Below are positions 4,634-63,223 of a DNA stretch of 64,000 bases, piece by piece. The stretch's first letter is position 1, and each line of letters starts with the position of its first letter. Both the position numbers and the translations under genes were made by a program. The DNA is from Candidatus Babeliales bacterium (GTDB lineage Bacteria; Babelota; Babeliae; Babelales; JBFXEV01), in contig JBFXEV010000001.1 of the NCBI GenBank assembly GCA_050179755.1, positions 677,940 to 741,939 on the forward strand. The letters are read 5' to 3'. The notes beneath the pieces were generated by a model that was not told where the DNA came from, searched no databases, and saw only the letters and a program-made list of their open reading frames with translations.

Positions 4634-6202
4634 ATGTTGAGCAAAAAATTAGTTCTGTTTTGTGCTTTTTTCTCTCTGGCCAATCTTATGGGCATGGAGC
4701 AAGTGACTATTCAAACGGAAGAAGGTCAAGAATTTATTGTAGACGCAGACCTTGCAAAGCTTTCGGAAACTTTAAAGAATTTAATAGAAGATGCAGGAGG
4801 GGATCTACTTGAGAACTCATTGCCATTGCCTAATATTACAGGGGCCACATGGGCGCAGATTCAAAATTTATTACCCGCTGTTCGCGATATTATAGATGGC
4901 ACTCAAGATGCTCAGCAAAAAAAAGATGGCATTATTGCCGCATTAAAACAACTTGATGGCACTAATCTCATAGCATTTATTATTGCAGTTAATTATTTGG
5001 ATATTCGTATTCTATTAGAGTTAGCAATTGATGTTGCAAAACAGATTGATGTTAAAAAGATAACTCCCGCACAAATTGCTGCACTACCCAAAGAAATTCG
5101 CAATCCTATTATATTTGCACAGACATTAAATATTTTGGGTCCATTGAGTGACAGCTCATTGCAGGTTAAGCAAACTGCCGGTAAACGTTCAGTATTTTCA
5201 GTGGATGTATCGCCTGACGGCAGCAAGATGGTCTCAGGATCTAATGATAGAACCGTACGTATATGGGATGTTAATAATTTTAACTTACTTAAAACATTTT
5301 ATACCGTAAATATGGTGAGAGCGGTTTGTGTAACACCAGATGGCCGTAAGCTTGTTACTGGTTCAGACGATGGCGTTGTCCGTCTACTTGATATCAATAC
5401 CGGTGGGCTCCATCGGGTGTTTATGGGGCATATATTTCCTGTGACATCAATCTCTATAACGCCAGATGGTAATCATATAGTTTCAGGTTCTGCTGATGGT
5501 ACAATTCGCATATGGGATATTATGACAGGTGAACTTGTTGCCGTGTTGCGAGATTCTGTAAGCAAAGCGATCAATGCAGTCTTTGTAACACCTAATGGTA
5601 AACATATAATTTCAGGGTCCGATGATTATTCAGTTGGCATATGGGATATTGGAACATATAAGCCATTAGTTAAGCTAATAGGGCATACCGGCCCAGTTAA
5701 GGGAGTGTGGGCAACGCCAGATGGTGCCTTTATTGTTTCAGGGTCATTGGATGGGACAGTTCGTATTTGGGATAGCAACACTCACCAACAATTATACGAG
5801 CTAAAAGCCGATGGTCCTGTGAATTCTGTTGTTGTAACGCAGGATGGCAGTAAAATACTCTCAAGCTCTCAGAATGGCATACAAGTATGGGATAGAAATA
5901 ATCGTGCGTTACTTGTACATTTTATTGTTTTTCCTCATATGATTCGGGTTACGCCCGATGGCAAAACTATTGTGGGTTCCAGTGGTAACTTGTTATTCAA
6001 ATTTGATATGTCAATTTTGGATCGCTTTCCTGCTATAACACTACAGCAGGCTGAGTTCATTTGGTCGTATTTACAAGGCAGTCATCGTGAAGACTGGAGC
6101 CCTATTTTAAACCTTCTGGCACTTAGGCCAACAATGTTACAAGGAGTAGCGGGTGTGCAGGAAGTGCAGCCGCCCACAAAACGCCGGCGGGGTGCTCAGT
6201 AA
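4634..6202 (+). CDS. Leader + SKP1-like (POZ) domain + WD40 propeller fusion protein, paralog 1
   Basis: AAGGAG at 4621-4626 sits 7 nt before ATG 4634; the track start 4628 is TTG. Leader is LSKKLVLFCAFFSLANLMG. SKP1-collinear block: MEQVTIQTEEGQEFIVDADLAKLSETLKNLIEDAG...LPLPNI...IIAVNYLDIRILLELAIDVAKQI. WD blades: GSNDRTVRIWDV, GSDDGVVRLLDI, GSADGTIRIWDI, GSDDYSVGIWDI, GSLDGTVRIWDS. Confidence 0.85.
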   Translation: MLSKKLVLFCAFFSLANLMGMEQVTIQTEEGQEFIVDADLAKLSETLKNLIEDAGGDLLENSLPLPNITGATWAQIQNLLPAVRDIIDGTQDAQQKKDGIIAALKQLDGTNLIAFIIAVNYLDIRILLELAIDVAKQIDVKKITPAQIAALPKEIRNPIIFAQTLNILGPLSDSSLQVKQTAGKRSVFSVDVSPDGSKMVSGSNDRTVRIWDVNNFNLLKTFYTVNMVRAVCVTPDGRKLVTGSDDGVVRLLDINTGGLHRVFMGHIFPVTSISITPDGNHIVSGSADGTIRIWDIMTGELVAVLRDSVSKAINAVFVTPNGKHIISGSDDYSVGIWDIGTYKPLVKLIGHTGPVKGVWATPDGAFIVSGSLDGTVRIWDSNTHQQLYELKADGPVNSVVVTQDGSKILSSSQNGIQVWDRNNRALLVHFIVFPHMIRVTPDGKTIVGSSGNLLFKFDMSILDRFPAITLQQAEFIWSYLQGSHREDWSPILNLLALRPTMLQGVAGVQEVQPPTKRRRGAQ

Positions 6203-22225: not shown

Positions 22226-22422
22226 AGTAGTTCTTATGCGCGCTGCGTGCATACTTCGTCGTGAAACGACGTGAAGTATAGCGCTCAGCGATCGAGCGGA
22301 ATGGTCCAGCGGAACGCTGGTGCTTTTTTGCGTCCTTTTTTTGCACAAAAAAAGGCATGCGCTGCCGCGCGTAGCGGTACCAGGGATAATGATTGTAAAA
22401 TGGTAAAGCGAACTTCTACATT
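22226..22422 (+). repeat. Structured roughly 200-nt repeat element, copy A
   Basis: Near-identical to 63015-63223. Contains four local hairpins, e.g. ccagcg-gaa-cgctgg and cctttttttg-ca-caaaaaaagg. Confidence 0.85.
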
Positions 22423-37761: not shown

Positions 37762-38682
37762 TTACTGTTCATGTTTTTCAAGTAATTGTGCAATATCAGT
37801 ATGGCCTGCTTCTTGTGCAAACATGCGCGGTGTTTGGCCTTTGTTATCGTTTGTGTAAACATCTGAGCCATGCGCCAAAAGTAATTCCACAATCTCTCTG
37901 TTTCCTCCATACGATGCATAATGGAGTGGAATTCTACCGAATTTATCTTTTATATTTACCTGAGCACCATGAGCTATAAGCAATTGTGGGGTTTCTAAAT
38001 TATATTGAATATGTAACGCCGTTCGGTTAAGGTCATCTTGAGCATTCACTTTCGCACCATGAGTCAGTAGTAGTTCAGTGATTTCTACATTTCTTGCACC
38101 ATGCAATGCTCTCCTGCCATCAACGTCTTTTGCGTTCACGTCAGCGCCATGGATCAATAGTAGTTTAACTATATCTTTCCAGAAGAGGTGGGGTGAATGA
38201 GTGTGTAAGGCTGTTTTGCCATCCATATCTTTTGCATTTACATCTGCGTTATGTGCTATCAAGAAAGCAGCCATTGGTGGAGTGAATGCGTAATGGAGTG
38301 CTGTTTTGCCACGATTATCTTTGGCATTTATATCTGCACCATGCTCTAGTAATAATTTAATGATGTTAGGGTGCCATGCCAGGTGAATTGCTGCATTTCC
38401 GTCATCATTTTTTATATTCACATTTGCACCGTGCGCTAATAATACTTTAATGAGTGATGTTTTCTCACTGCTACCCCATAATAATGAAGGATTCTTTAAA
38501 GCTTTTTTTAATAGTTCAGTTGCATCAGCACCAGCAGCTAACTTTTTCTTGATGATGAATATTTTTACTTTGTTAATGATAGTAACAATATAGTGCTGAA
38601 TGCGCGTCCATATATGTCTTGCAAAGATTATACCACCAACCAAAAGAATAAATCCTATCAAATAAATTAATGCGTTCTTCAT
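37762..38682 (-). CDS. Membrane-anchored ankyrin-repeat protein
   Basis: ATG 38682 has AAGGTG upstream; the track start is GTG. TM segment ALIYLIGFILLVGGIIFA. Six or more ANK units (GKTALHYA..LIAHNADVNAKD etc.). Confidence 0.85.
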   Translation of the reverse strand: MKNALIYLIGFILLVGGIIFARHIWTRIQHYIVTIINKVKIFIIKKKLAAGADATELLKKALKNPSLLWGSSEKTSLIKVLLAHGANVNIKNDDGNAAIHLAWHPNIIKLLLEHGADINAKDNRGKTALHYAFTPPMAAFLIAHNADVNAKDMDGKTALHTHSPHLFWKDIVKLLLIHGADVNAKDVDGRRALHGARNVEITELLLTHGAKVNAQDDLNRTALHIQYNLETPQLLIAHGAQVNIKDKFGRIPLHYASYGGNREIVELLLAHGSDVYTNDNKGQTPRMFAQEAGHTDIAQLLEKHEQ

Positions 38683-41543: not shown

Positions 41544-41595
41544 GATCTGGATTCCTTGTAAAATACCTACAATAGAGGCTCTAATCTCCACTTTT

Positions 41596-41625
41596 AGTAT
41601 AGCATTTTTAATTTCTATTATGCAA
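41596..41625 (-). promoter_or_regulatory. Sigma70-type promoter for B3 (TTGCAT-N18-TATACT)
   Basis: The minus strand reads TTGCATaatagaaattaaaaatgcTATACT. The same architecture recurs at 48420-48449 and 49297-49326. Confidence 0.6.
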
Positions 41626-41691
41626 TATTTTGCAGGGTTGGTAAGGGTTCTTGCAGGTTAAACAAAGATAGGCAAGGGGGGAGGGGGGGTT

Positions 41692-41737: not shown

Positions 41738-44170
41738 TTAGGCAGAAGGATTAGGAATTACTTCACATGGTTCAAGATCATATACACTAATTAATTCGCG
41801 TGTATCACCAAATGTTTCCACCCAAGCACCAATGGCACCTAAATCTAAAATCTTTGGTATATCAAGTTGCTGGCCTAATTCAAATGGTATATCGCTTGTG
41901 CGCACAATGGTGGTACTGTTTTCAATAATATCTAAATACACAAGACGCAGTTCATCTTCTACCGTTGCAATGGCAGCTGATTTGGTACCTTGATCAGCAT
42001 ATACTTGTGCGCCAATAAAGGTACTAAAATCTATTAAGCTGCTGGTGGTAATTTCATAGATAGGGTCAGTGCCACGATCTTCCAATTGTTTTGCTGATGC
42101 CAAAACGTTTCTAAATGATTTATTAAAATAAAATCCTGTAGAAGCCATTTCTTCTTTATAGAAAAAGTCATCAGTGCTTGTAGCAGTGTCAATAAAATTG
42201 ACAGGGCTTGTAGTGCGAATGCCGCCTGGTTCAAGAATTCCAGCTTGGTCAATATTAACCGGTTGCATGCGCCAATTATCAGGAAGCGTTGCAAGGTTGG
42301 CGCCTCCCAGCACGTTGCCAGTTGGAAAGTTAACTCTAAATGTATAATTATCGGCAGGCCCGAGCGCAAATACAGCAGCAGCATCTTCAAGGCCTGAGGC
42401 AATTTGATTATGCTCAAATACACCTTCTTGAATATCAAGTGTTATTTGCGTCAGATTACGCAAACCGCTCATTCCTTGATAGTTAGAACTATCAGGTGGC
42501 ACGATTGGTTGCCCTAGAAGGCCTGCACCAATGCCAAAAAAGCCTTGTCTTCCAATTTTAAATAATGCACCCGGCCCATTGATAATAATAGACGCTTGAA
42601 CACTGTTATCATTAAGCGAAGGATCTGCAAAGGCTCGTGCTTTGCTATATAAATTACCAATTTGAAAGCCACCGCCAGCTCTTGTCTCATCACCAATAAG
42701 TACTTTACCATTATCAAGTATTTGTAAATTTATATTGGTAGCTTCTACTTCTGGAGGCAGCGTTTCTATGCCAAGTAATGTTCCTTTTTCAACAAATAAT
42801 TGCGCATTTTCTTCAATAATAATGGTACCCGTGCCTATTATTTTAGATCGTACCACGTTAGGGTCTTCTCCATTTTGAGAAAATACGGCAGATAGCATTT
42901 GGAATACTGTTCTGTTGCGTGAACAATTTTCATTAACAATGCAATCTGTGTGTTTGCCATTATAAAGAAGATATTCATGATCTACTTGTTCGTTTGCAAG
43001 TTTTACCGAGAGCATGCGGGCGCCACGCGCATTAATGAGTTCTAAATTACCACCATCAAGAAAAAATGCTTGATGTTGTAACGTTTCAATAACATCTGGA
43101 TCGTTTGATACGAACCAAGGATCTTTTTCTCGCCAACGCTCAATAGCAGTTTGACTTAATACTAATGACACGGGAAATGTTATTGGTGTCCCGGGGATTT
43201 CTGTGCTGGCACCAATAAAAGGCCCCGGAGTAAATACCGGCGTGCCATCACCATTTACCTGGAAAGGAAGATCCACAAAGTAGGTATTTACGAATGGGTT
43301 TACAAATTCACCTCGAATAGCAGCTAAGTTTGGGCTAAGTGCACCTGATAATGAAAAAAGTAAAAAGGTATTAGGGCCATTGGTGGGAGCAATTCTGCCA
43401 GTATCTGGGCCCGAAGTTGGTATTTCTGGTTGCACAAGACTGTTTAGTGAAAATAGCGCCCCATCAAGAATGCCTGCAGTATTTGTATGTGCAAGATCGG
43501 TTGTTGCAATAGCCCAGAGCGGCGTGCCGCTTTCAGAGCCAAATCCAATAAATTTATCTGGGTGATTCATGGCCAGTAATGTAGAGCCATAGCCGCCCAT
43601 TGATTGGCCTGCAAGCGCTCGATACGCTCTATCTGCTTTTGTGCGGAAATTTGCATCAATAAAATTGACGGTATCTTCCACCAAAAAATCTTCAAAAAGT
43701 CCTGGCATTCTATTTACGCCATTTAATTCCGAATTAACATACCATGCTGAGGCATAGTTTCTCAAGCCATCTGGAGTTACACCATTAATTAAGCTCGCAT
43801 CAACCGATACTACAATGATAGGCGTAATTAATTTATTGTTAATTAAATCATCTAACACCAATTTATCGCCGCATACAAAAAAAGTATGATCACCTTCAAA
43901 GCCGGGCAAATAATAAACGACCGGGTAACGTTCTGTGCTTGTCTCATATCCTCTTGGTAGATAGACAATTGCCAAACGAACATTATCTCCTTCGGGTGCC
44001 AAAGGTGATGGTGGAACTTTGTCTAACGTGGGTATACCAACAAGCACTAGTAACCCCCCATTGCCAGGGTTGTTTATATCACCGCAAATGTTGGGGTCTA
44101 TTGGATATATTATTGCATGAAGATGCGTTGTCATCAGTAGGGCAAGCAAAAAAGTTATGATGTATTTCAT
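41738..44170 (-). CDS. Secreted esterase-domain protein (putative-esterase / esterase D-like fold) with a roughly 400-aa beta-rich C-terminal extension
   Basis: Leader MKYIITFLLALLMTTHLHA. VRLAIVYLPRGYETSTERYPVVYYLPGFEGDH. Nucleophile elbow AGQSMGGYGS (Ser codon at 43603..43601). The C-terminal half is Gly/Asn/Ile-rich and repeat-like. Confidence 0.7.
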   Translation of the reverse strand: MKYIITFLLALLMTTHLHAIIYPIDPNICGDINNPGNGGLLVLVGIPTLDKVPPSPLAPEGDNVRLAIVYLPRGYETSTERYPVVYYLPGFEGDHTFFVCGDKLVLDDLINNKLITPIIVVSVDASLINGVTPDGLRNYASAWYVNSELNGVNRMPGLFEDFLVEDTVNFIDANFRTKADRAYRALAGQSMGGYGSTLLAMNHPDKFIGFGSESGTPLWAIATTDLAHTNTAGILDGALFSLNSLVQPEIPTSGPDTGRIAPTNGPNTFLLFSLSGALSPNLAAIRGEFVNPFVNTYFVDLPFQVNGDGTPVFTPGPFIGASTEIPGTPITFPVSLVLSQTAIERWREKDPWFVSNDPDVIETLQHQAFFLDGGNLELINARGARMLSVKLANEQVDHEYLLYNGKHTDCIVNENCSRNRTVFQMLSAVFSQNGEDPNVVRSKIIGTGTIIIEENAQLFVEKGTLLGIETLPPEVEATNINLQILDNGKVLIGDETRAGGGFQIGNLYSKARAFADPSLNDNSVQASIIINGPGALFKIGRQGFFGIGAGLLGQPIVPPDSSNYQGMSGLRNLTQITLDIQEGVFEHNQIASGLEDAAAVFALGPADNYTFRVNFPTGNVLGGANLATLPDNWRMQPVNIDQAGILEPGGIRTTSPVNFIDTATSTDDFFYKEEMASTGFYFNKSFRNVLASAKQLEDRGTDPIYEITTSSLIDFSTFIGAQVYADQGTKSAAIATVEDELRLVYLDIIENSTTIVRTSDIPFELGQQLDIPKILDLGAIGAWVETFGDTRELISVYDLEPCEVIPNPSA

Positions 44171-44182
44171 TATGATCTCTTT

Positions 44183-45970
44183 TTATAGGAAAAACTCTAA
44201 GCCAATATACCAATCTGTATCTTGTGGTGTATTTTTACCACCAACCACGCCGCCAACGCTTGCAAAAATGCCAGCAGTAATGCAATCAAATTCATGCCGT
44301 AAACATATTTCACCGTAGAGTTTATGCGTGGTAACGTCTGTGTTAATTCTTAGATTGTTAGCATTAAGCAAGTTGGTGCCCGTTGGTATGCATGTGCACG
44401 CATTTGATTGTAAGCTAATAGAATCTCGTGATTTGATATACAGTTCATAACCAAAACGCATAAGGGCATAATCCTTGCAGGTGATAGGGCGTGCAATAGA
44501 AGCTTCTGCGTGGCCTAAGAAATAGTGCCAATTTACGTTGGCAGGAACGCCTGATCCAATGTTTTTGATCGTTGCTCCTTGCAGCGGTAATGCCACATTT
44601 TCTGCGCGTTTAAGTACTACAGAAAAGAGGGCATCTGCTTGTAGCAATAACCAATCATAATCATGCCAATAGGTTCGCGTGCCAATCATAATTTCTGGGT
44701 GTCCGTTATTGCCAAGTGATTGCAATGCGATCAGGCCTGGAGCCACTTGTGCGCCGGCCGTTGGTAAGCGCAATGCAACATTACCTTCTACAAAAGAACA
44801 CTGATTCCACCAATATTGGGTGAAAAACTGTGCATCAATATCACCAAGCCCGCCATGACTTCGCGAATTAAAATTAATGCCAGCTCTTTCAAAAAATGCA
44901 TTAATTTGTGTGGCTGGTGATCCGATTAAAAGATCAACGCGTTTTTTGATTATGCACGCGGGATCAACCAATTTAGTGACCGTGGGCGTTGATATAAAGG
45001 TTGGTTCAATCCACAATTGCTCCCGAATTTCTTCTTGTTCAGGAGTATTGGCGCCAAGTTCACCATAAGGTGTTGTGATGAGAAAGCGTGCGCGCCCGCC
45101 GATGGGCACAGGACTACCACTGCCTGGTAAGCCATCAAACGATTGTGCTTGGTCTATTGGTTGCGCAAAAGGGGGAGTTGGTGCAGTGCCCAAAGGTGGT
45201 TTAAAAACAGTAACTGGGTTTTGGCGTATTTGATTGAGCGTATTAAAGTTATTGGTGACATCAACATTTGCAATAGTTATAGGATATGTCACTGGATTTG
45301 CTGGTGGATTGCCTTTGAATCCTGTATCTACATAATCAACTAGCCGCACCATGAGGCCTGGAGGTGACCAGCTTTCAGGTAATTGATGCAAAAATTGTAA
45401 ACGATATGCAAATGTTTCCACCGGTGTGCTGTTAGTGCCTAAAAACTCTACTTGTTCGCGTACGTTAGCATCAAGAATTGCAGGGTCAATTTGGTTATTA
45501 ACAATCGGGCCTTGCGTTAAGCGCATGTTAAAATTGCGAAAGGGGATAGTTACACGGCCACCAACAACCACGTTGCAGCGCACCGCATGAGAACTTACTA
45601 ATCCAAGCACTACGCCGCGATCGGTATAGGTATAACGGGGTGAGAGTAGAGTTGAAAAAAGAATATTAATAGGTGACGTGGTTTGCGTTGCAAAAATATC
45701 ATTTACTGGAAAATCTGCTCTGTTAAATAATAATGCGGATAACGGGCTTTTATGTGTATCAGTAGTTTCAACATTAAGTGCGGTATCACATTTGCGCTGA
45801 TAATAACCTGCCCATGCATAAAATTGTGCTTGTTCACATAGAGGATTAAGTGGTTCAGTGTGCAGCCAATAACGTAATAAAGGAATGGGTGTTCTAAATT
45901 CACGCGCAGTAAGTGTTGTGCTTATGCATGTGGCAATTACTAAACTGTATATAAGATAGTTGTGCTTCAT
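44183..45970 (-). CDS. Putative outer-membrane beta-barrel protein (family not assignable)
   Basis: Leader MKHNYLIYSLVIATCISTTLTA. No hydrophobic helices. Aromatic/Gly-rich amphipathic segments. Aromatic C-terminus DWYIGLEFFL. Gaps of 12-15 nt to the flanking genes. Confidence 0.45.
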   Translation of the reverse strand: MKHNYLIYSLVIATCISTTLTAREFRTPIPLLRYWLHTEPLNPLCEQAQFYAWAGYYQRKCDTALNVETTDTHKSPLSALLFNRADFPVNDIFATQTTSPINILFSTLLSPRYTYTDRGVVLGLVSSHAVRCNVVVGGRVTIPFRNFNMRLTQGPIVNNQIDPAILDANVREQVEFLGTNSTPVETFAYRLQFLHQLPESWSPPGLMVRLVDYVDTGFKGNPPANPVTYPITIANVDVTNNFNTLNQIRQNPVTVFKPPLGTAPTPPFAQPIDQAQSFDGLPGSGSPVPIGGRARFLITTPYGELGANTPEQEEIREQLWIEPTFISTPTVTKLVDPACIIKKRVDLLIGSPATQINAFFERAGINFNSRSHGGLGDIDAQFFTQYWWNQCSFVEGNVALRLPTAGAQVAPGLIALQSLGNNGHPEIMIGTRTYWHDYDWLLLQADALFSVVLKRAENVALPLQGATIKNIGSGVPANVNWHYFLGHAEASIARPITCKDYALMRFGYELYIKSRDSISLQSNACTCIPTGTNLLNANNLRINTDVTTHKLYGEICLRHEFDCITAGIFASVGGVVGGKNTPQDTDWYIGLEFFL

Positions 45971-45985
45971 AATTTCTCTTTATGT

Positions 45986-46411
45986 TTAAGATTGCACGGG
46001 AATAAATAGGCTGTTGCCACTCATACGCAGAATTGGTTGTAAATCAGGAAATTGTAAAATAGCTCCCGGCAGAACTTGTAGTTGGGCATTACCATTAAAT
46101 GTGATATTGAGCCCAATTATCCAACGTGCCGATGTGCTAACAATAAAAGCGCCGCTAGTACTTGATGTCAAAGTAACAACATCGGTTTGCAGATCAAACC
46201 CTGGCCCTGCTTCAATGAGCAAGCACCCGATAGTATCGGTAATAACTATATCTTCATCAAGAATAATGGTACTGGTTTCATTAGGGCGAAATGGATTATC
46301 GCACGAATAGAGTTGATTAAATTCGCTTGCAGTTATAATAACACTAAGTGATTGGGTGCAATAAAGCGATAGTGCAATACATGTTGCACTCAAAAGGTAA
46401 TTGTTCATCAT
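45986..46411 (-). CDS. Small secreted beta-rich protein, first gene of the OMP/esterase operon (D)
   Basis: Leader MMNNYLLSATCIALSLYC. ITFNGNAQLQVLPGAILQF resembles IIEENAQLFVEKGTLLGIE in the esterase protein's C-terminal half. Confidence 0.6.
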   Translation of the reverse strand: MMNNYLLSATCIALSLYCTQSLSVIITASEFNQLYSCDNPFRPNETSTIILDEDIVITDTIGCLLIEAGPGFDLQTDVVTLTSSTSGAFIVSTSARWIIGLNITFNGNAQLQVLPGAILQFPDLQPILRMSGNSLFIPVQS

Positions 46412-46485
46412 ATGCTCTCTTTAAGTTATATATAAAATTTATATACAACTTAAGTTCAGCAGATGATGAACAACTTGTCAAGCGC
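46399..46485 (-). promoter_or_regulatory. Duplicated promoter/leader module, copy 1 (TTGACA-N17-TGcTGAACT plus start-codon-occluding inverted repeat)
   Basis: The 87-bp block is alignable to 51275-51360, and its distal 36 bp match that copy at 35 positions. -35 at 46476-46481, -10 at 46453-46458. Arms at 46462-46476 and 46399-46413. Confidence 0.6.
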
Positions 46486-47109
46486 TTAAGAATTTGGGTT
46501 TTTCATACCCTCGAGCACAGATTCTTTTGTTGTGGGAGGTGGCGCATTTTTGGCAGCCTCAGCTTGTTGCTCTGGGGTAAGTTTAGGTTTAACTGGGTCG
46601 CCAGCTTGGGTTGTGAATGTACCATCAGGGTTTCTAACCATGCCTACAGCGCCTTCTGGTAGTGGTTCTGGTGGTTTTGTATAGTTAAACGTTGCAACAG
46701 CTGCGCCATCTTCGCGCGTGAGAATAATATTTTGATTAGGGCAACCTTTTTGTGTATTGTTTTTTGGAATAGCTTTTGCAAATTCTGTTTGATCTTGGAA
46801 TTTTACCATAACTGATGATACACAGAAGCCCATGCGTGCGCCTTCTTTAAATGTATAGGTAGTAGATTCATTGGGTTGTAAGTTACGGTACTGACCTTCA
46901 GGATCAAGCCTGCCTGTTTGATCATATGCTAAATTTCCCTGACTTCCTTTACTCACATAACTATAGCCAGCAGCGGTAATAAAAACTTGTGCGGGCGTTG
47001 AAGTATTATTTGTTATGGTAAAAAGTCTTGGCGTGGGTTCTGCTGCAAACGCATGTAATGAAATGGTTAATGCTAGTATGGTAAGCGCAATGTTATGTAC
47101 TCTATTCAT
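46486..47109 (-). CDS. Family C secreted protein (C1)
   Basis: ATG 47109 (MNRVHNIALTILALTISLHAFA) lies 1 nt after the A3 stop. FTITNNTSTPAQVFITAAGYSYVSKGSQGNLAYD aligns to C2. Pro/Ala/Lys-rich tail. Confidence 0.7.
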   Translation of the reverse strand: MNRVHNIALTILALTISLHAFAAEPTPRLFTITNNTSTPAQVFITAAGYSYVSKGSQGNLAYDQTGRLDPEGQYRNLQPNESTTYTFKEGARMGFCVSSVMVKFQDQTEFAKAIPKNNTQKGCPNQNIILTREDGAAVATFNYTKPPEPLPEGAVGMVRNPDGTFTTQAGDPVKPKLTPEQQAEAAKNAPPPTTKESVLEGMKNPNS

Positions 47110-47110
47110 A

Positions 47111-47704
47111 TTAATCCTTGCCAAGTTCAGCAGTAAGCGGTGTAGTACCAATTTTTGGTGTTGAACTATCCTTTATTGCTTTTTGGAATGCAGGCAATGT
47201 TGCTACTACTTTGCCGTTACCGGTAAGTACAAGCTTTATAGCGCCTGGTTCTTGTAAATCAGCTGGCGTATCAATAGAAACCATTTGGTCTACTGAAGTC
47301 CACATAGTTTCATTTGGCTTTTGCACAAATATGCCCACTATTGTTTTGCCCTGATCACCAATATTTGGATCATTTTTAGCTTTTTTAATAGCAGCAAGTA
47401 AGTTTGCTGGCGCATCAGTGGGCAATGGTTGAGCGAGATCGAGCATGTAGAATAAGCCTTTAACTTTTTTGCCCGTGTATCTACCTTGTGTTGGGATTAT
47501 TTCAATTATTTTTTTACCGCTTGTTGGTAGTGCAATGGTAGCAATCACTTGTTTATTAATAATGCCATAATCTTCTGCCTGAATATCGGTAGTATCAATA
47601 GTTGCTTTTGCGGATTTAATGGGGCCAAGATCTAAGTTCATTGCAAAACTAAATTGAGAGATCAAGCAACTGAACAGTGTGCTTATGAGTAAGTTATTTT
47701 TCAT
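47111..47704 (-). CDS. Family A secreted protein (A3)
   Basis: AAGGAA precedes the ATG. GKKIIEIIPTQGRYTGKKVKGLFYMLDLAQPLPTDAPANLLAAIKKAKNDP. Confidence 0.7.
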   Translation of the reverse strand: MKNNLLISTLFSCLISQFSFAMNLDLGPIKSAKATIDTTDIQAEDYGIINKQVIATIALPTSGKKIIEIIPTQGRYTGKKVKGLFYMLDLAQPLPTDAPANLLAAIKKAKNDPNIGDQGKTIVGIFVQKPNETMWTSVDQMVSIDTPADLQEPGAIKLVLTGNGKVVATLPAFQKAIKDSSTPKIGTTPLTAELGKD

Positions 47705-48370: not shown

Positions 48371-48419
48371 GGTACTATCCCTTAATTAATCTAAATTTTT
48401 CATTATTCTTTCCACCTTC

Positions 48420-48449
48420 AGCATAGCATTTTTATTGACTATTAAGCAA
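48420..48449 (-). promoter_or_regulatory. Sigma70-type promoter for A4 (TTGCTT-N18-TATGCT)
   Basis: The minus strand reads TTGCTTaatagtcaataaaaatgcTATGCT. Homologous to the B3 and A5 promoters. Confidence 0.55.
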
Positions 48450-48455
48450 TAGTTT

Positions 48456-49230: not shown

Positions 49231-49296
49231 GATAACACTCCTTTATTATTAGTTATACTTTTTTTTGTTCTACTGTATAAGTATCTTTACACTTTT

Positions 49297-49326
49297 AGTT
49301 TACCATTATTAATTTCTAATATGCAA
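49297..49326 (-). promoter_or_regulatory. Sigma70-type promoter for A5 (TTGCAT-N18-TAAACT)
   Basis: The minus strand reads TTGCATattagaaattaataatggTAAACT. Confidence 0.55.
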
Positions 49327-49423
49327 TAGTTTTTCCTTGGGCGGGAAAGGCAGCGCAGGCTTGTTTAGAGGTATTCAGGTTAAAATCAAGGTAAGGCAGG
49401 AGGGTGGTTTTCAAGAATATATA

Positions 49424-49498: not shown

Positions 49499-49891
49499 AT
49501 GATGAAAAAACGTATAATTGCGCTAGCATTGTTAGTGGCGAGTATTTCTGGTTCACAAATGATCGCTATACAGATAAAAAATAATCTTAGGTATGGTGTT
49601 GCGGTGAGTGACGCTGATGGTGCCCGAATAGCAAATATTTGCACCATGGACACGGTAAATTGTGAAATTAGAGGTAAAGTTACACGATCTGGCGTTGAGC
49701 TTACCCGTGATCAAATGCGCGTGCGTCTCAATGTAAATGGTATTGATATTTATCCTGGTGAAACCAAAGAAGTGGGTTTTTGGGGTGATGGTTCAAGATT
49801 AACTGCATATTATGATACTACCGTGTTGCAATTTACAGCGCCAGTGCAAAATTCTTTAGAGTTCCCACGCGATTTTAAATTAGCCAGATAA
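49499..49891 (+). CDS. Family B-like small secreted protein (B4, divergent)
   Basis: Leader MMKKRIIALALLVASISGSQMIA. IQIKNNLRYGVAVS start strand. Two Cys (ICTMDTVNC). Confidence 0.6.
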   Translation: MMKKRIIALALLVASISGSQMIAIQIKNNLRYGVAVSDADGARIANICTMDTVNCEIRGKVTRSGVELTRDQMRVRLNVNGIDIYPGETKEVGFWGDGSRLTAYYDTTVLQFTAPVQNSLEFPRDFKLAR

Positions 49892-51244
49892 ATTAATTTC
49901 ATTTCCTGACGTATCAAAATATTTGGCATAGGCATACGAAATATAGAGTATATTGCGTTGCCACTGCACGGCTTTAAATCGAGCTGAAAGACACATTAAT
50001 TTGGGGATATTGGAATTTTTGCACCATATATCATTGGTTATTGCAAGTATGGTTGACCCTTTTTCATACCTATCGTCTGGCTTATCATTAAAAAAAAGTT
50101 CCGAACAAATATACGGTATAAATGAAACTCCTTCAAGAATATGGAGCATTGGTCGCTCATTTGTGGATGGAGTTATGCCCGGATAAGTACTGAAAAATAA
50201 CTTTTCAAACAATTTAAAATTATAAATTTCTGGCAATGCTTCAGTAAGGAGCATTGCATGCCGCTTATCAAAGATTTCTTTTAATTTCCCATTAAAAAAC
50301 CAATGTAACGTGTTGCGGTAAGAAGGGCCATCCCAGCGAAATGAGCCAAGTACAATATGTAGTGGCCGCAGCAAATCTTCTTCTGACCACATTGCGCAAA
50401 GATCAGGGTCTTTGCTTAAATGATCACAAAAAATGGATGACTCAGGCATAATAATAAGCTTGGCATCAGGTTGTAATACCGCTACATGGAAGAATAATTC
50501 TTGCGCCAATTTTGCTTGTTTTGTTAAATCAACTTGGCTTGAAAGTTTGCTTGGCAGGTAGGCTATTTCTTTGAGCCATGCCGGTTTTATCATCGGTGCG
50601 AGCGGAATTACCAAACTAATAAGCCAGGGGGCTGCGAATGCTATCACCCAAAAAAAAGCATAGAGAGATTTTCTTATATACAAGTAAACGAGTGATCCTG
50701 AAAAACTTATAAGTAATAAGATAAGTATTGTTTTGCCAAGATAAGGCAAAAGTGCAAGTAAGCGCGGTTCCTCTGCAAGAACAAGTACGGGATTAAAGAA
50801 AAAATGCCCTTCACAGCGCCCAAAGAGTATAAAGCAATAATGTTCCATAAAAAGAATAAAAAGTGTGTACGTACTAACCCATAAAAAGAGTCGCTGCCCT
50901 ACGCTGCGTAATGAAAAAAAGTTAATTATGGTATTATTGAGCAAAAACCAGCATGCCGCATAAAAAGCAGCGGTGGAGATGAGTACTAATGCGGGAGCAA
51001 GGCGTGCAAGAATTGAGCCTTTTGCAAAGTTATCAATACCTGTAATAACGCCAGCCAGGTGAAGAGTGAAGGTAATAATTCCCCATAGAAAACCACGTTT
51101 AAACGAGAGATTGTTATATACTGCTATATATAAAAGGGGTGCAGCGAAAATAAAAACCAAGGGCCAAAAATAGCTACTCAAAAGTAATGGCAGCGCATAG
51201 CAAATTGCAGAAAGAATAAAGAGTAGCCAATGAGCGAGTATCAT
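49880..51244 (-). CDS. lnt: Apolipoprotein N-acyltransferase
   Basis: Polytopic N-terminal half, then a CN-hydrolase triad context: IIMPESS (Glu), FDKRHAMLLTEALP (Lys), IPYICSELFF (Cys). Confidence 0.8.
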   Translation of the reverse strand: MILAHWLLFILSAICYALPLLLSSYFWPLVFIFAAPLLYIAVYNNLSFKRGFLWGIITFTLHLAGVITGIDNFAKGSILARLAPALVLISTAAFYAACWFLLNNTIINFFSLRSVGQRLFLWVSTYTLFILFMEHYCFILFGRCEGHFFFNPVLVLAEEPRLLALLPYLGKTILILLLISFSGSLVYLYIRKSLYAFFWVIAFAAPWLISLVIPLAPMIKPAWLKEIAYLPSKLSSQVDLTKQAKLAQELFFHVAVLQPDAKLIIMPESSIFCDHLSKDPDLCAMWSEEDLLRPLHIVLGSFRWDGPSYRNTLHWFFNGKLKEIFDKRHAMLLTEALPEIYNFKLFEKLFFSTYPGITPSTNERPMLHILEGVSFIPYICSELFFNDKPDDRYEKGSTILAITNDIWCKNSNIPKLMCLSARFKAVQWQRNILYISYAYAKYFDTSGNEINLSG

Positions 51245-51291
51245 TGTATGCCACCAAAAAGCAGCATTAAATAGAAGTTGTTCATCATCAT
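51241..51291 (-). other. 16-codon upstream ORF (MMMNNFYLMLLFGGIQ*) whose TGA overlaps the lnt ATG (ATGA)
   Basis: AAGGAAA precedes the triple ATG. The N-terminus is homologous to the start of gene D (MMNNYLL). Confidence 0.4.
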
Positions 51292-51360
51292 GCTTTCCTT
51301 ACAATATACAAATAAGTATATATTTTAAGTTCAGCAGACGATGAACAACTTGTCAAGCGC
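51275..51360 (-). promoter_or_regulatory. Duplicated promoter/leader module, copy 2
   Basis: -35 TTGACA at 51351-51356 and -10 TGcTGAACT at 51328-51333. 15-bp inverted-repeat arms at 51337-51351 and 51275-51289, with one G-U pair. Confidence 0.6.
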
Positions 51361-51396: not shown

Positions 51397-51903
51397 TTAT
51401 GAAGACGGTTGCTTTCCTTTAGATGGCATCTTGCCAGCAGTAACACTTTCAACAGGTTCAGTTTTTGCAGTAAGTGATTCTCCACCTTCAAAGTTAATTG
51501 AAGGTTTACCATCTGCTCTTCGCGTTAAATTAATAGTTTGAGTGGTTCCTGCAGCTACTTTATTTTCTTTAACAGCGCGTACAAAATCTGGTTCGCCTGC
51601 AAATTTTACCATAAGATCTTTTAATGGCATACCTTGGCGTGCATCGCCACCTTCCCAAGAATAATCTGTTGATTTACCGGGTTCAAGAGTACGAGTTTTC
51701 CCTTTAGGGTCATCCAAATTGCCTTCCATATCAAACGCAAGGTTTCCTTTACTGTTTTTACTTATAAAATCATAGCCTTCCGCTGTGATATATATTTCTG
51801 CATTTACGGCAGCATTATTTTTAACTGTAAAATCAGCTAATATATGGTTGCAGCTTAACGTCATAAGAGCTGCGATAGCCATGTTGAGTGATAAACGTTT
51901 CAT
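51397..51903 (-). CDS. Family C secreted protein (C2)
   Basis: Leader MKRLSLNMAIAALMTLSCNHILA. FTVKNNAAVNAEIYITAEGYDFISKNSKGNLAFD. Confidence 0.7.
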   Translation of the reverse strand: MKRLSLNMAIAALMTLSCNHILADFTVKNNAAVNAEIYITAEGYDFISKNSKGNLAFDMEGNLDDPKGKTRTLEPGKSTDYSWEGGDARQGMPLKDLMVKFAGEPDFVRAVKENKVAAGTTQTINLTRRADGKPSINFEGGESLTAKTEPVESVTAGKMPSKGKQPSS

Positions 51904-51928: not shown

Positions 51929-52594
51929 TTATTTTTGTGTTTCGCCTGAGCGTACTTGGCGGTAATATTCAAGCTTTCTGGCAAGTGAATCACCTGGATC
52001 TGGTTCTGAAAATCCTTCTTTCATCGTATCGCCAAAATCTCTAAATCCGGCAGAAACTGTTGTTACGTTTTCTGCTTCATATTTTTGCCAGCCTTCAAGT
52101 ATTACTGAGGCCTTTTTGCTTGATGCAAAATCAGTAGCTTTTTTACCGCCAACAATAGTGAGTGCACCTTTGCCGTGGAGTACTGTAGCTATTTTTAAAA
52201 GCTCATTTTGTGCTGCATAGAAAAGCGCAGTCATGCCGGCATTGTTTGGCAAATTTAGCAATTCTGTGGCAGCGTCTTCTTTAGGTAGTTTTGTAAGCAA
52301 TCGGTTGATAATATCGGTGATATATTGCGTCGCTTGTGCTTCTCCATAAAGAGCTACCGCCTGTGGAAATCCCTTAATGGCTGCAGTAATGAGCGTATTG
52401 CCGTTAGCATCACGGGCAACATATAAATCTTCGGTGCTAATCAAAAGAGATTTTGCTTGATTGAGCAAATTTACATAATCACCTTTCTCTGCAAAGGCAA
52501 AAAACTTTGTAGCTTCATCGGGCGAGCCAAATGCGCCAAAAGATGAAAGCAGCATCATGCTTGCTCCAAGATAGGTTAAAAATTTAGAATTCAT
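51929..52594 (-). CDS. Secreted ankyrin-like repeat protein (paralog of 53284..53832)
   Basis: ARDANGNTLITAAIKGFPQAVALYGEAQATQYITDIINRLL; NNAGMTALFYAAQNELLKIATVLHGKGA. Confidence 0.7.
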   Translation of the reverse strand: MNSKFLTYLGASMMLLSSFGAFGSPDEATKFFAFAEKGDYVNLLNQAKSLLISTEDLYVARDANGNTLITAAIKGFPQAVALYGEAQATQYITDIINRLLTKLPKEDAATELLNLPNNAGMTALFYAAQNELLKIATVLHGKGALTIVGGKKATDFASSKKASVILEGWQKYEAENVTTVSAGFRDFGDTMKEGFSEPDPGDSLARKLEYYRQVRSGETQK

Positions 52595-52656
52595 TGGTTT
52601 TCTCCTGTTTTTTTACTATTTTTTACCCTCATAGGGCATGCTTCTATATCACCAAT

Positions 52657-52686
52657 AGTATATCAATTTTGTCATTCAAATAGCAA
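52657..52686 (-). promoter_or_regulatory. Promoter TTGCTA-N18-TATACT
   Basis: The minus strand reads TTGCTAtttgaatgacaaaattgaTATACT. The attcaaatagcaat core is shared with 53882-53911. Confidence 0.55.
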
Positions 52687-52747
52687 TATTATAGTATTTT
52701 TTTACTTCAAGTGTGCAGGTTAGGGTTGAGGAGGGCTTTTTTTTGGA

Positions 52748-53287
52748 TTATTTGTAATTGCTTTCAATCAAGGTAAACCCCTCAGTTTCTTCCTTCTCTT
52801 TAAGAAACCGTGCCAATTGTTCAAACTTACGCTTTTCTTTGGGGTTTTGTAAGCGCGATGCTATATCTTGTGCCCAAGCGCTTGCTGTTTTGCCTAAACT
52901 GTCTTTAAGGGTATAGTCTACGTGCGTCTTTGTATCTAAGTAGGTAATAACCGATTGTAGGCCAAAAAGTGCTGCCATCATAAGAGCAGTTTGCTGCGCA
53001 ACATTTTGAGCATTCACATTAATGCCTTTTAGGGGAATCAATTCTTTTATAAGCGATAGTGCTTGCTCTTCAGTAATAATATCAGTGCCAACCGCTTCAA
53101 GTACTGCGTGGAGTGGCGTGTTGCCTTTGCCGTCGCGCAATGTTGCTAAATTTTTTGATTGACTGATTAGCTTACGAGCCTGTGCAACATCTCCTTTATA
53201 AAGTGCTTGAAATAACTCAGTTGACCCACGTAGCATGTTTGGCGCGCAGATAATGCTTGTGCATATGATTATTGTTTGTAATTTCAT
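52748..53287 (-). CDS. Secreted ankyrin-repeat protein
   Basis: RDGKGNTPLHAVLEA; NVAQQTALMMAALFGLQSVITYLD. The start overlaps the upstream stop (ATGA). Confidence 0.7.
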   Translation of the reverse strand: MKLQTIIICTSIICAPNMLRGSTELFQALYKGDVAQARKLISQSKNLATLRDGKGNTPLHAVLEAVGTDIITEEQALSLIKELIPLKGINVNAQNVAQQTALMMAALFGLQSVITYLDTKTHVDYTLKDSLGKTASAWAQDIASRLQNPKEKRKFEQLARFLKEKEETEGFTLIESNYK

Positions 53288-53832
53288 TTTTTATCCCCCA
53301 CTAATACCCAGTCGTCTTCCAGATTCTCCCATTGCGCTAAAATTGTTTTAAGTTGCGCATTTTTTGCATAGGAAGATGCTTTTTTACCATCTTTTGTAAC
53401 TGAGAAGGCTCCTTTATCATGCAAAAGAACCGCTACTTTTAAAAGCCCCAATTGAGTTGCCATAAAAAGAGGCGGCATGCCCGCTTTGGTTGCCTCATTT
53501 ACCAGTTTAACTGCGTCTGCTTTATCAATCCTTAAAAGGAGCATGGAAAGTACGTCATAGAGTAATTGTGAGGCTTTTGGCTCGCCATATTTTGCTACCG
53601 CTAATTTGTAACCTTGTAAAGCAGCACTAATAAGCGTATTGCCATTATCGCGCGCGTTCATTATTTCTTGAGCAGTTAATTTGCGATTTTTAGTAAGATC
53701 GAGAAGCACTTGGTAAAAGCCTTTTTCAGAGGCTTGAAAGAATTTTTTAACATCTTCGTTTGAACCTAAAAGGGCAAGGGGTAAGCATAAAAAACTGCTT
53801 ACGGCGATAGTCTTTAAGATAATGGCTTTCAT
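53284..53832 (-). CDS. Secreted ankyrin-like repeat protein
   Basis: CAGGAG precedes ATG 53832 (MKAIILKTIAVSSFLCLPLALLGS). The predicted promoter lies inside the track's longer N-terminus. Confidence 0.7.
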   Translation of the reverse strand: MKAIILKTIAVSSFLCLPLALLGSNEDVKKFFQASEKGFYQVLLDLTKNRKLTAQEIMNARDNGNTLISAALQGYKLAVAKYGEPKASQLLYDVLSMLLLRIDKADAVKLVNEATKAGMPPLFMATQLGLLKVAVLLHDKGAFSVTKDGKKASSYAKNAQLKTILAQWENLEDDWVLVGDKK

Positions 53833-53881
53833 GAGAGCTCCTGTTTTTTGGCTTTTAATCTTGTGTAGCCTTGTTAATTTC

Positions 53882-53911
53882 AGTGTACCAATTTGGCTAT
53901 TCAAATAGCAA
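53882..53911 (-). promoter_or_regulatory. Promoter TTGCTA-N18-TACACT
   Basis: The minus strand reads TTGCTAtttgaatagccaaattggTACACT. Confidence 0.55.
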
Positions 53912-55452: not shown

Positions 55453-55637
55453 ATCCCCTCCTGGTGTTATTGATATCTTCTTTTTCATTTTTAGTGTAGT
55501 TGATTTGCTATGTTTTAAGGAATAGTTTGCAGCGCATCATTGTTTTGTTAATGCAATTAGTTTAAATGTTGACTTTATTTTATAATTTTAATTACAATTA
55601 TAATGAGTAGATGTTTTGTGTTTAAAAAGGAACGATT

Positions 55638-63014: not shown

Positions 63015-63223
63015 AGTAGTGGTTCCTCTGCGCGCTGCGTGCATACCTCGTCGTGAAACGACGTGAGGTATAGCGCTCAGCGATTGAGCGGAATGGTCCA
63101 GCAGAATGCTGGTGCTTTTTTGCGTCCTTTTTTTGCACAAAAAAAGGCATGCGCAGCCGCGCGTAGCGGCACCGGCAATAATGCTTACAAGTAATCAGCG
63201 GAACTTCTACATTTTATTTTAGA
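63015..63223 (+). repeat. Structured roughly 200-nt repeat element, copy B
   Basis: Aligns end to end with 22226-22422. Differences include two compensatory base-pair swaps. Confidence 0.85.

Follow-up and report, generated by a model that had tools for sequence, protein, structure and literature searches.

A probable promoter with a spacer complementary to downstream start codons: a duplicated leader module in a Candidatus Babeliales bacterium

Why should the spacer of a bacterial promoter be complementary to the start codons that follow it? The question is raised by two homologous blocks in a 64-kb stretch of the genome of a Candidatus Babeliales bacterium (contig JBFXEV010000001.1 of assembly GCA_050179755.1, positions 677,940 to 741,939 of the forward strand), referred to below as the window. 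The blocks, or modules, lie at 46399-46485 (copy 1) and 51275-51360 (copy 2); both are on the minus strand, as are all the relevant genes. Each follows a gene of a family designated C. Copy 1 precedes gene D, the first gene of an operon that continues with an outer-membrane-protein-like (OMP-like) gene and an esterase gene, and copy 2 precedes a gene related to lnt. In the reading favoured here, to which a probability of about 55% may be given, the promoter spacer would serve as the 5' side of a hairpin, and this hairpin would hide the start site in read-through RNA only.

The most conserved part of the blocks is a 36-mer, GCGCTTGACAAGTTGTTCATC[A/G]TCTGCTGAACTTAA, which occurs exactly twice in the window (46450-46485 and 51325-51360), while shuffled sequences are expected to contain none. 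The two occurrences are identical at 35 of 36 positions (97%) and the single difference is an A-to-G change in the spacer of copy 2, in agreement with the first-pass annotation of this DNA, which had described homologous blocks with distal 36 bp differing once. Beyond the 36-mer, a weaker homology runs across the leader up to the ATGATGAAC start (51-nt repeat, 86%). Read from 46485 down to 46399, copy 1 is composed of GCGC-TTGACA-AGTTGTTCATCATCTGC-TGAACT, an A+T-rich palindrome, AAAGAGAG and GCAT-ATGATGAACAATT, the last being the start of gene D. Copy 2, read from 51360 down to 51275, has the same anatomy, apart from the one spacer A-to-G and a different A+T-rich middle. TTGTTCATC and its complement are present at both arms of both copies. 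The promoter had been annotated as TTGACA-N17-TGcTGAACT; the hexamers, the 17-nt spacing and the TG are all present, but the notation is slightly loose, since the TG lies within the 17-nt spacer. The elements of the two copies, as read from the sequence or predicted by RNA folding, are as follows.

46476-46481, minus strand: copy 1, -35 hexamer TTGACA, read from the sequence and unchanged in 16 of 16 modules
46459-46475, minus strand: copy 1, 17-nt spacer
46458-46476, minus strand: copy 1, predicted 5' arm formed by the promoter spacer (AAGTTGTTCATCAT, C, TGCT), with the TG of the extended -10 (RNA fold)
46453-46458, minus strand: copy 1, -10 hexamer TGAACT, 17 nt past the -35; the slot is occupied by TATTAT in relative L019
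46421-46453, minus strand: copy 1, predicted inner A+T-rich hairpin of 15 bp (RNA fold); every module has one, of varying sequence
46415-46422, minus strand: copy 1, purine-rich Shine-Dalgarno (SD) region AAAGAGAG, 3-10 nt before the ATG, read from the sequence
46399-46416, minus strand: copy 1, predicted 3' arm (AGCA, U, AUGAUGAACAAUU), holding the gene D start codons (RNA fold)
51351-51356, minus strand: copy 2, -35 hexamer TTGACA, read from the sequence
51333-51351, minus strand: copy 2, predicted 5' arm formed by the promoter spacer (AAGTTGTTCATCGTCTGCT), 19 pairs in the fold, one of them G.U
51328-51333, minus strand: copy 2, -10 hexamer TGAACT, read from the sequence
51298-51329, minus strand: copy 2, predicted inner A+T-rich hairpin (RNA fold)
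51275-51294, minus strand: copy 2, predicted 3' arm (AGCA, U, GAUGAUGAACAACUU), holding the start codons of an upstream open reading frame (uORF) (RNA fold)

In RNA folding, each module forms one long hairpin, of -42 kcal/mol in copy 1 and -36.8 kcal/mol in copy 2; the z-scores of the whole-module folds are -8.4 and -7.6, respectively, and 0 of 200 shuffled sequences were as stable. The promoter spacer pairs with the AGCA..AUGAUGAACAA start region in both blocks. In copy 1, 46463-46475 and 46399-46411 are joined by 13 pairs (one G.U), and the helix is extended across a 1x1 mismatch by four pairs of UGCU (46458-46461) with AGCA (46413-46416); the helix of copy 2 has 15 + 4 pairs (51333-51351 with 51275-51289 and 51291-51294). 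The inverted repeat, originally given as 13-15 bp, is real and longer than described, with 13 + 4 pairs in copy 1 and 15 + 4 pairs in copy 2, and the sole difference between the arms, the A-to-G in copy 2, preserves pairing by yielding a G.U pair, as had been noticed. The 5' strand of the hairpin is made up of the promoter spacer, including the TG of the extended -10, and the first T of the -10 hexamer; the 3' strand comprises AGCA, the AUG codons and the following two to three codons. Part of the -10 (GAAC) falls in an internal loop, as does the purine-rich SD, and the A+T-rich inner hairpin caps the structure. The earlier statement that the 3' arm contains the start codons of the downstream gene is right for copy 1, where this gene is D; in copy 2, the AUG codons open the uORF, not the lnt-like gene.

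Each block would be a self-insulating promoter and leader cassette, whose spacer is complementary to the stretch from just past the SD through the AUG codons. The promoter would drive the D-OMP-esterase operon in copy 1 and, via a short coupled uORF, the lnt-like gene in copy 2. The upstream co-directional gene ends 4 nt (copy 1) or 40 nt (copy 2) before TTGACA and no terminator is called on this strand in between, so upstream transcription can enter the structures of the window; this is not so in relative L006, described below. Read-through RNA from C1 or C2, the two C genes, would carry both arms and fold into the long hairpin, burying the start codons, and the downstream genes would then not be translated from foreign transcripts. 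Transcripts starting about 7 nt past TGAACT would lack the 5' arm and would have only a small A+T-rich 5' hairpin and an open ribosome site; in copy 1 the inner hairpin would lie at or near the 5' end of this promoter-derived mRNA. Where an lnt-type module has a U-run after its stem, the hairpin may in addition terminate transcription. The analysis shows the sequence features, how they are conserved, that they are confined to these two gene starts, and the predicted energetics; that the promoter is active, where transcription begins, that polymerase reads through and how translation responds are inferred.

The predicted energetics agree with this scheme. In the model used, the start site was placed 7 nt past the -10, the read-through RNA began 60 nt upstream and the interval from the SD to the AUG was opened. 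The mean predicted cost of opening is 5.1 kcal/mol in promoter-derived RNA versus 15.5 kcal/mol in read-through RNA; the first-pass annotation, which proposed folding both leaders, had expected the start site to be sequestered in the latter. With only the 20-nt 5' arm shuffled, the mean cost is 5.7 kcal/mol, and the real cost is reached by at most 2 of 50 arm shuffles in any module; the 5' arm therefore specifically adds about 10 kcal/mol to the predicted opening cost.

Relatives, designated below by L numbers, were sampled as contigs encoding homologs of C, D and the lnt-like protein. In related Babeliales contigs, the module occurs 16 times, in 15 distinct sequences; it is followed by a D ortholog in 11 cases and by an lnt-like ortholog in 5, and always lies immediately before the D-OMP-esterase operon or the lnt-like gene. 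A covariance model derived from 15 of these modules was searched against 194 kb, comprising the window and the loci of relatives; it gave no matches except the D and lnt sites, the antisense mirror images of these and, weakly, L019. A regular-expression scan over the same 194 kb likewise gave D and lnt sites only. Within the 194 kb searched, the block is not a generic repeat, and the search for further copies proposed in the first-pass annotation gives two in the window, both at gene starts. The module pattern was not found in GTDB-representative or JGI metagenome contigs, two collections from which the clade is absent; exact and degenerate pattern scans of these collections gave either no match or a single chance match each (L007, from Saprospiraceae, and L008). 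In Rfam 15, no match to the window reaches the gathering score, and the sole matches, to plant and animal miRNA-precursor models, are far below the threshold. The module travels with the downstream gene even behind a different upstream gene, which is ankyrin-like in L012, L013 and L016. In the L009 organism, C1 and the module seem to be parted by an insertion-sequence-like (IS-like) insertion, which counts in favour of a promoter within the module.

The end of contig L001 (10900-10944) and the start of contig L009 (about 121-160) share about 25 nt in inverted orientation (ttacgctgactatccattac), and the sequencing-run accession numbers are adjacent. This shared inverted stretch suggests an IS-like insertion between C1 and the D module.

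TTGACA, a 6/6 match to the consensus, with a 17-nt spacer is found in 16 of 16 modules, and TTGACA-N17-TGAACT with TG(C/T) upstream is unchanged in 15, while the spacer sequence drifts; these 15 modules come from organisms with D proteins as little as about 50% identical. In the most distant ortholog, L019, the elements read TTGACA-N17-TATTAT and match the consensus at 11 of 12 positions. The canonical TATTAT in this slot pins the -10 to the place where TGAACT sits elsewhere. In L006, an 11-bp G+C-rich hairpin followed by T7, a terminator, is situated between the C gene and the module, directly before TTGACA; therefore, the D transcript must start inside the module. TGAACT itself matches TATAAT at 3 of 6 positions, with G at position 2, and is not called by a consensus scan, although the upstream TG is present. 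Other -10s in the window read TAxxCT, so that TGAACT is one step from a normal -10 in this organism. Taken together, these features suggest that the module carries a sigma-70-type promoter.

The TAxxCT elements belong to a second conserved promoter module, AAACTATTGCAT-N18-TA(T/A/C)(A/G)CT (TTGCAT-N18), which precedes paralogous genes for secreted proteins (A and B families). Its -10s are TATACT, TATGCT, TAAACT and TACACT, with the upstream TG in three of four. The four members are listed here.

41587-41631, minus strand: second promoter family
48411-48455, minus strand: second promoter family
49288-49332, minus strand: second promoter family
55484-55528, minus strand: second promoter family

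By eye, all four (41587, 48411, 49288 and 55484) are without complementarity between spacer and ribosome-binding site (RBS), and the idea that such complementarity is a genome-wide habit was dropped. Several other assignments of the conserved elements were also rejected. For extracytoplasmic function (ECF)/sigma-E promoters (GGAACTT-N16-TCAAA, with TGAACTT as the -35), sigma-54, sigma-32 and sigma-28, no partner element at a fixed spacing exists across the 16 modules, and the same is true of LexA-type GAAC/GTTC boxes and Fur-box-like hexamers; these alternative sigma and operator boxes were compared by eye with their consensus sequences. A second promoter with TATAAY just upstream of the SD was discarded because it has no -35 at a constant distance. 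The L019 module is a near-perfect palindrome, and its antisense strand accordingly shows a promoter-like ATGACT-17-TATAGT (L019 358-386, minus strand) that mirrors the sense promoter.

Several lines of evidence indicate that the pairing itself has been kept. The same fold is obtained for 16 of 16 modules, with the ATG paired in 15; in the remaining one, L019, the stem stops 2 nt before the ATG and the SD region is paired. The spacer of L019, CTAATCTTTCAAAGTTA, bears no relation to the others, but over 17 nt it is the perfect complement of TAACTTTGAAAGATTAG, a stretch that stops 2 nt short of the ATG. The near-perfect 51-nt palindrome of this module folds at -33.7 kcal/mol (z = -5.9; the z-scores for L006, L001 and L019 range from -4.9 to -7.0), and L019 provides the strongest evidence for selected pairing. 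In the lnt module of L017, GTCCATC pairs with GATGGAC in place of GTTCATC with GATGAAC found elsewhere, and the proximal helix is re-registered; the 5' arm of this module gives -24.5 kcal/mol with its own 3' arm versus -7 to -11 kcal/mol with non-cognate ones (those visible in the matrix row). L012 has CATTAT opposite ATAATG, with a U.G intermediate in L013, and arm changes in L020 and L021 have passed through G.U pairs. Cognate arm duplexes average -16.6 kcal/mol and non-cognate ones -13.2 kcal/mol, and 87% of cells are paired versus 28-54% with slid partners. The sense strand folds more stably than the antisense in 13 of 15 distinct modules; this indicates the use of G.U pairs and speaks for coding-strand RNA more than for a cruciform in the DNA or a site bound by protein. 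In addition, the 36-nt block is identical at 35 of 36 positions while C1 and C2 share only 39-40% of their amino acids, so the block was held constant as the co-duplicated genes decayed. Gene conversion is an unlikely source of this identity: AAGTTGTTCATCATCTGC also occurs in the lnt module of L021 and, nearly identical, in L001, L006 and L020, so it is a retained ancestral sequence.

A number of observations weigh against start-site masking in read-through RNA. Sigma-70 promoters almost always have A at -11, and TGAACT has G at this position; it may consequently be a weak promoter, one that needs an activator or one served by a different sigma factor. In L006 and in the D locus of L017, read-through would already be limited by hairpins that precede the module. 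In a 12-sequence alignment, covariation exceeds all shuffles (0.171 against 0.130, with 0 of 500 as high), but in a 15-sequence alignment, the covariation score is reached by 59 of 500 shuffles and the number of double-change pairs by 140 of 500; the weak column-wise covariation in the close clade implies that the helix is kept there mostly because both strands are conserved. Several substitutions are uncompensated (two C-A mismatches in L001, and others in L006, L009 and L018), and the distal six pairs (AAGTTG with CAACTT) are lost in distant D-type modules, which leaves 9-12 pairs. Furthermore, coding and initiation also constrain the 3' arm and promoter function the 5' arm, so some of the conservation is not due to pairing. 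The model of the first-pass annotation, that the start site is hidden only in read-through RNA, gains support in silico from the invariant promoter, the helix in all 16 modules, the L019 module and the energetics.

The hairpin with its T-run might instead be an overlapping terminator and promoter that mainly terminates, or stabilises the 3' end of, the upstream transcript, with start masking as a side effect. Six to seven T are found in the first 8 nt past the stem in four of five lnt-type modules (L001, L020, L021 and L017), six in the D module of L020, and no separate terminator exists between the C gene and the module in either window copy. Most D-type modules, however, have one to three T there, and their T-runs lie 9-12 nt off, inside Phe/Ile codons. 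Neither window copy is called as a terminator, having 4 and 4 T in the 8 nt past the stem and no G+C-rich stem with a U-tract, whereas this group does use short G+C-rich terminators, as in L006; the module, moreover, goes with the downstream gene and not the upstream one. As the principal role, termination is unlikely. It can coexist with start-site masking and, for the lnt-like gene, may add a second layer of insulation, without being the common denominator of the modules. A different possibility is that transcription starts upstream, TTGACA..TGAACT is inactive and the hairpin is part of the mature leader, acting as a regulated translational switch that opens, or a target of RNase III that is cleaved, on a signal (protein, helicase or temperature). 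The near-perfect helices of about 35 bp with internal loops do resemble RNase III substrates, and the -10 is non-canonical. This explanation seems distinctly improbable, given the perfect and invariant -35 and spacing, the canonical -10 of L019 and the terminator directly upstream in L006; there is also no Rfam family match.

At the level of DNA, the arms could be operators for a looping repressor over the -10 and start site, an alternative already raised in the first-pass annotation, or could extrude a cruciform that makes the promoter sensitive to supercoiling. The arm centres are 62-64 bp apart, about six helical turns, the DNA between them is A+T-rich and flexible, and the L019 module is a near-perfect 51-nt palindrome. 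An operator sequence should be conserved, yet L019 keeps the architecture with unrelated arms, which disfavours looping; neither arm has internal dyad symmetry, and the changes through G.U pairs and the better folding of the sense strand are expected of RNA. Such an element is slightly less credible still than a hairpin in the mature leader. That the blocks are a passive relic of segmental duplication, or a dispersed repeat without function, is the least plausible explanation and has already been largely refuted. The second copy did clearly arise by duplication of C, the module and the first D codons, but at least five lineages have diverged since this duplication, 97% identity in the 36-nt block stands against 39-40% amino-acid identity of the co-duplicated C genes, and there are no further copies in the 194 kb.

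The genes next to the modules in the window are listed below; as the first-pass annotation had stated, a family C gene lies upstream of each block.

45986-46411, minus strand: gene D, 141-aa signal-peptide protein, first gene of the D/OMP-like/esterase operon
44183-45970, minus strand: OMP-like gene of the D operon
41738-44170, minus strand: esterase gene of the D operon
46486-47151, minus strand: gene C1, upstream of copy 1, with its stop 4 nt before TTGACA and no terminator called between
51397-51903, minus strand: gene C2, paralog of C1, upstream of copy 2, with its stop 40 nt before TTGACA and no minus-strand terminator called
49880-51244, minus strand: lnt-like gene, 454 aa, divergent apolipoprotein N-acyltransferase homolog
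51241-51291, minus strand: 16-codon uORF, MMMNNFYLMLLFGGIQ and a stop, whose TGA overlaps the lnt-like ATG (51242-51244) as ATGA

The gene order D/OMP-like/esterase is kept in L006, L009, L012, L013, L016, L017 and L018. The lnt-like label relies on homologs, some of which are named apolipoprotein N-acyltransferase or carry PF00795; Pfam gave no match for D, the OMP-like protein, the C family or the lnt-like protein of the window itself. A 140-aa version of D, 100% identical, is on record (P0005), and the C and lnt-like proteins are recorded as hypothetical proteins of a Candidatus Babeliales bacterium metagenome-assembled genome (AB7F19_04805, _04830 and _04835, on a 1.53-Mb contig).

The uORF of copy 2 is opened by AUGAUGAUG (ATGATGATGAAC), and equivalent uORFs precede lnt in L001, L020, L021 and L017. 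All five are unannotated and have 9-17 codons.

51241-51291, minus strand of the window: uORF before the lnt-like gene
2365-2418 of L001: uORF before lnt
3938-3991 of L020: uORF before lnt
1301-1348 of L021: uORF before lnt
4339-4368 of L017: uORF before lnt

In four of five lineages, the uORF runs up to or over the lnt ATG, ending as ATGA in three and as ATGACTAG in L020, where a 1-nt indel shifts the frame, yet the end stays at the lnt ATG. L017 is the exception, with the end 13 nt before the lnt ATG. Since the position of the end is kept and the peptide sequence is not, this points to translational coupling of the uORF with the lnt-like gene. The uORF is what remains of the 5' end of D. In the window and L001, and more weakly in L017, its body is separated from the lnt ATG by a small hairpin whose loop is U-rich.

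The position of the lnt-like gene differs among the relatives. In L012, L013 and L016, the D operon has one or two lnt-like genes immediately after the esterase gene, and the module is preceded by an ankyrin-like gene instead of a C gene.

11993-14752 of L012: lnt-like paralog or paralogs (one or two) after the esterase gene
14669-16057 of L013: lnt-like paralog or paralogs (one or two) after the esterase gene
14132-16900 of L016: lnt-like paralog or paralogs (one or two) after the esterase gene

The lnt-like gene of the window, L001, L020, L021 and L017 has a different location, behind a C2 ortholog, and a module and uORF of its own. The presence of lnt in the D operon of L012, L013 and L016 is evidence for operon rearrangement in the lineage of the window, and the shared C2-module-uORF arrangement indicates that the unit of C, module and first D codons was duplicated before those lineages split. 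The departure of the lnt-like gene from the D operon would have been accompanied by duplication of the cassette (3' side of C, promoter, hairpin and first D codons), and the copied D start would persist as a uORF that hands ribosomes over to the lnt-like gene. A more far-reaching proposal would be that of a portable cassette of this Babeliales clade that provides two-level insulation (termination and translational silencing), was copied with its neighbour gene to re-equip the lnt-like gene, had its start codons turned into a uORF and defines a small and strictly promoter-gated regulon of envelope genes, which might be restricted to a stage of the intracellular life cycle; it would be the cellular counterpart of the T4 and IS10 devices discussed below. 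As a whole, this proposal is tentative and rather doubtful.

Other features of the window deserve a brief mention. Two 92%-identical G+C-rich blocks of about 150-170 nt, with unrelated flanks in a genome of 38% G+C, are located at 22226-22394 and 63018-63186. Their differences include apparently compensatory pairs (ACTTCGTCG..CGACGTGAAGT versus ACCTCGTCG..CGACGTGAGGT; CCAGCGGAACGCTGG versus CCAGCAGAATGCTGG), the block ends in T-run hairpins and Rfam gave no family match; it may be a structured RNA of a kind not yet known or a small palindromic mobile element. Tandem coding repeats occur at 37829-38445 and 5199-5776, ankyrin-like (period of about 90-100 nt) and WD40-like (period of about 126 nt), and several ankyrin-repeat genes lie at 51929-53904. 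Ankyrin- and WD40-like repeats are typical of amoeba-associated bacteria.

If start-site masking in read-through RNA is confirmed, chromosomal operons too, and not just phages and insertion sequences, would use the device of a promoter inside a masking hairpin, and the translation of a gene would be made dependent on which promoter produced its mRNA. For the Dependentiae, which are uncultured and host-dependent, the module would be among the first cis-regulatory elements on record; a literature search found no paper on Dependentiae promoters or leaders. The shared promoter cassette would tie an outer-membrane operon to lipoprotein N-acylation. Its duplication history would offer a clear example of a gene leaving an operon yet keeping its regulation, with a relic start converted into a coupled uORF. 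Read-through RNA-seq coverage over these genes would then not necessarily mean protein, a point that annotation pipelines miss along with the uORF.

Among the arrangements with which the module can be compared, the simplest is an ordinary terminator followed by a promoter. Like it, the module sits between co-directional genes, and L006 has exactly such a terminator upstream of the module, but the Babeliales helix spans the promoter spacer and the start codons of the next gene. The module has no homology to the systems of T4, IS10/IS50 or IS200, to which it bears a resemblance in design. IS10 and IS50 (Tn10 and Tn5) are reportedly protected from external promoters by fold-back of the transposase mRNA, in work attributed to Davis, Simons and Kleckner (1985) and to Krebs, Schulz and Reznikoff. 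As in the scheme favoured here, the outside RNA carries a segment that pairs with the transposase initiation region, and transcripts from the element's own promoter lack it. The Babeliales module differs in being non-mobile, at orthologous positions in all relatives and without a transposase, and it would protect envelope genes. Sequestration of translation initiation signals in IS10 and IS50 is mentioned in 10.1101/2025.01.24.634351. The left end of IS200 combines a terminator against impinging transcription with a stem-loop that sequesters the SD (PMC4513863). This two-level insulation resembles the lnt-type modules, which combine a hairpin with a U-run; IS200, however, employs two separate hairpins, the SD hairpin being in its own mRNA, whereas one Babeliales hairpin would serve for both and would be absent from the mRNA of the gene.

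In phage T4, the genes e (lysozyme), soc, 49 and I-TevI each possess an RBS-sequestering structure, and a late promoter is located within the region encoding its 5' strand (PMC3014915). In these genes, as proposed for the Babeliales module, long transcripts hold both strands and hide the SD and/or AUG, while the gene's own promoter in or after the 5' strand gives rise to transcripts without that strand, which are translated; phages related to T4 also keep the arrangement while the sequence changes. The differences are that the Babeliales module belongs to a cellular chromosome and to envelope genes rather than to a phage temporal programme, and that the 17-nt spacer of a sigma-70-type promoter is itself the 5' strand, where T4 has a late TATAAATA box. 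The Babeliales cassette is, in addition, duplicated in one genome, one copy presumably acting via a coupled uORF. The logic of the device is already known from T4 and IS10/IS50, and what would be new is its cellular, chromosomal case.

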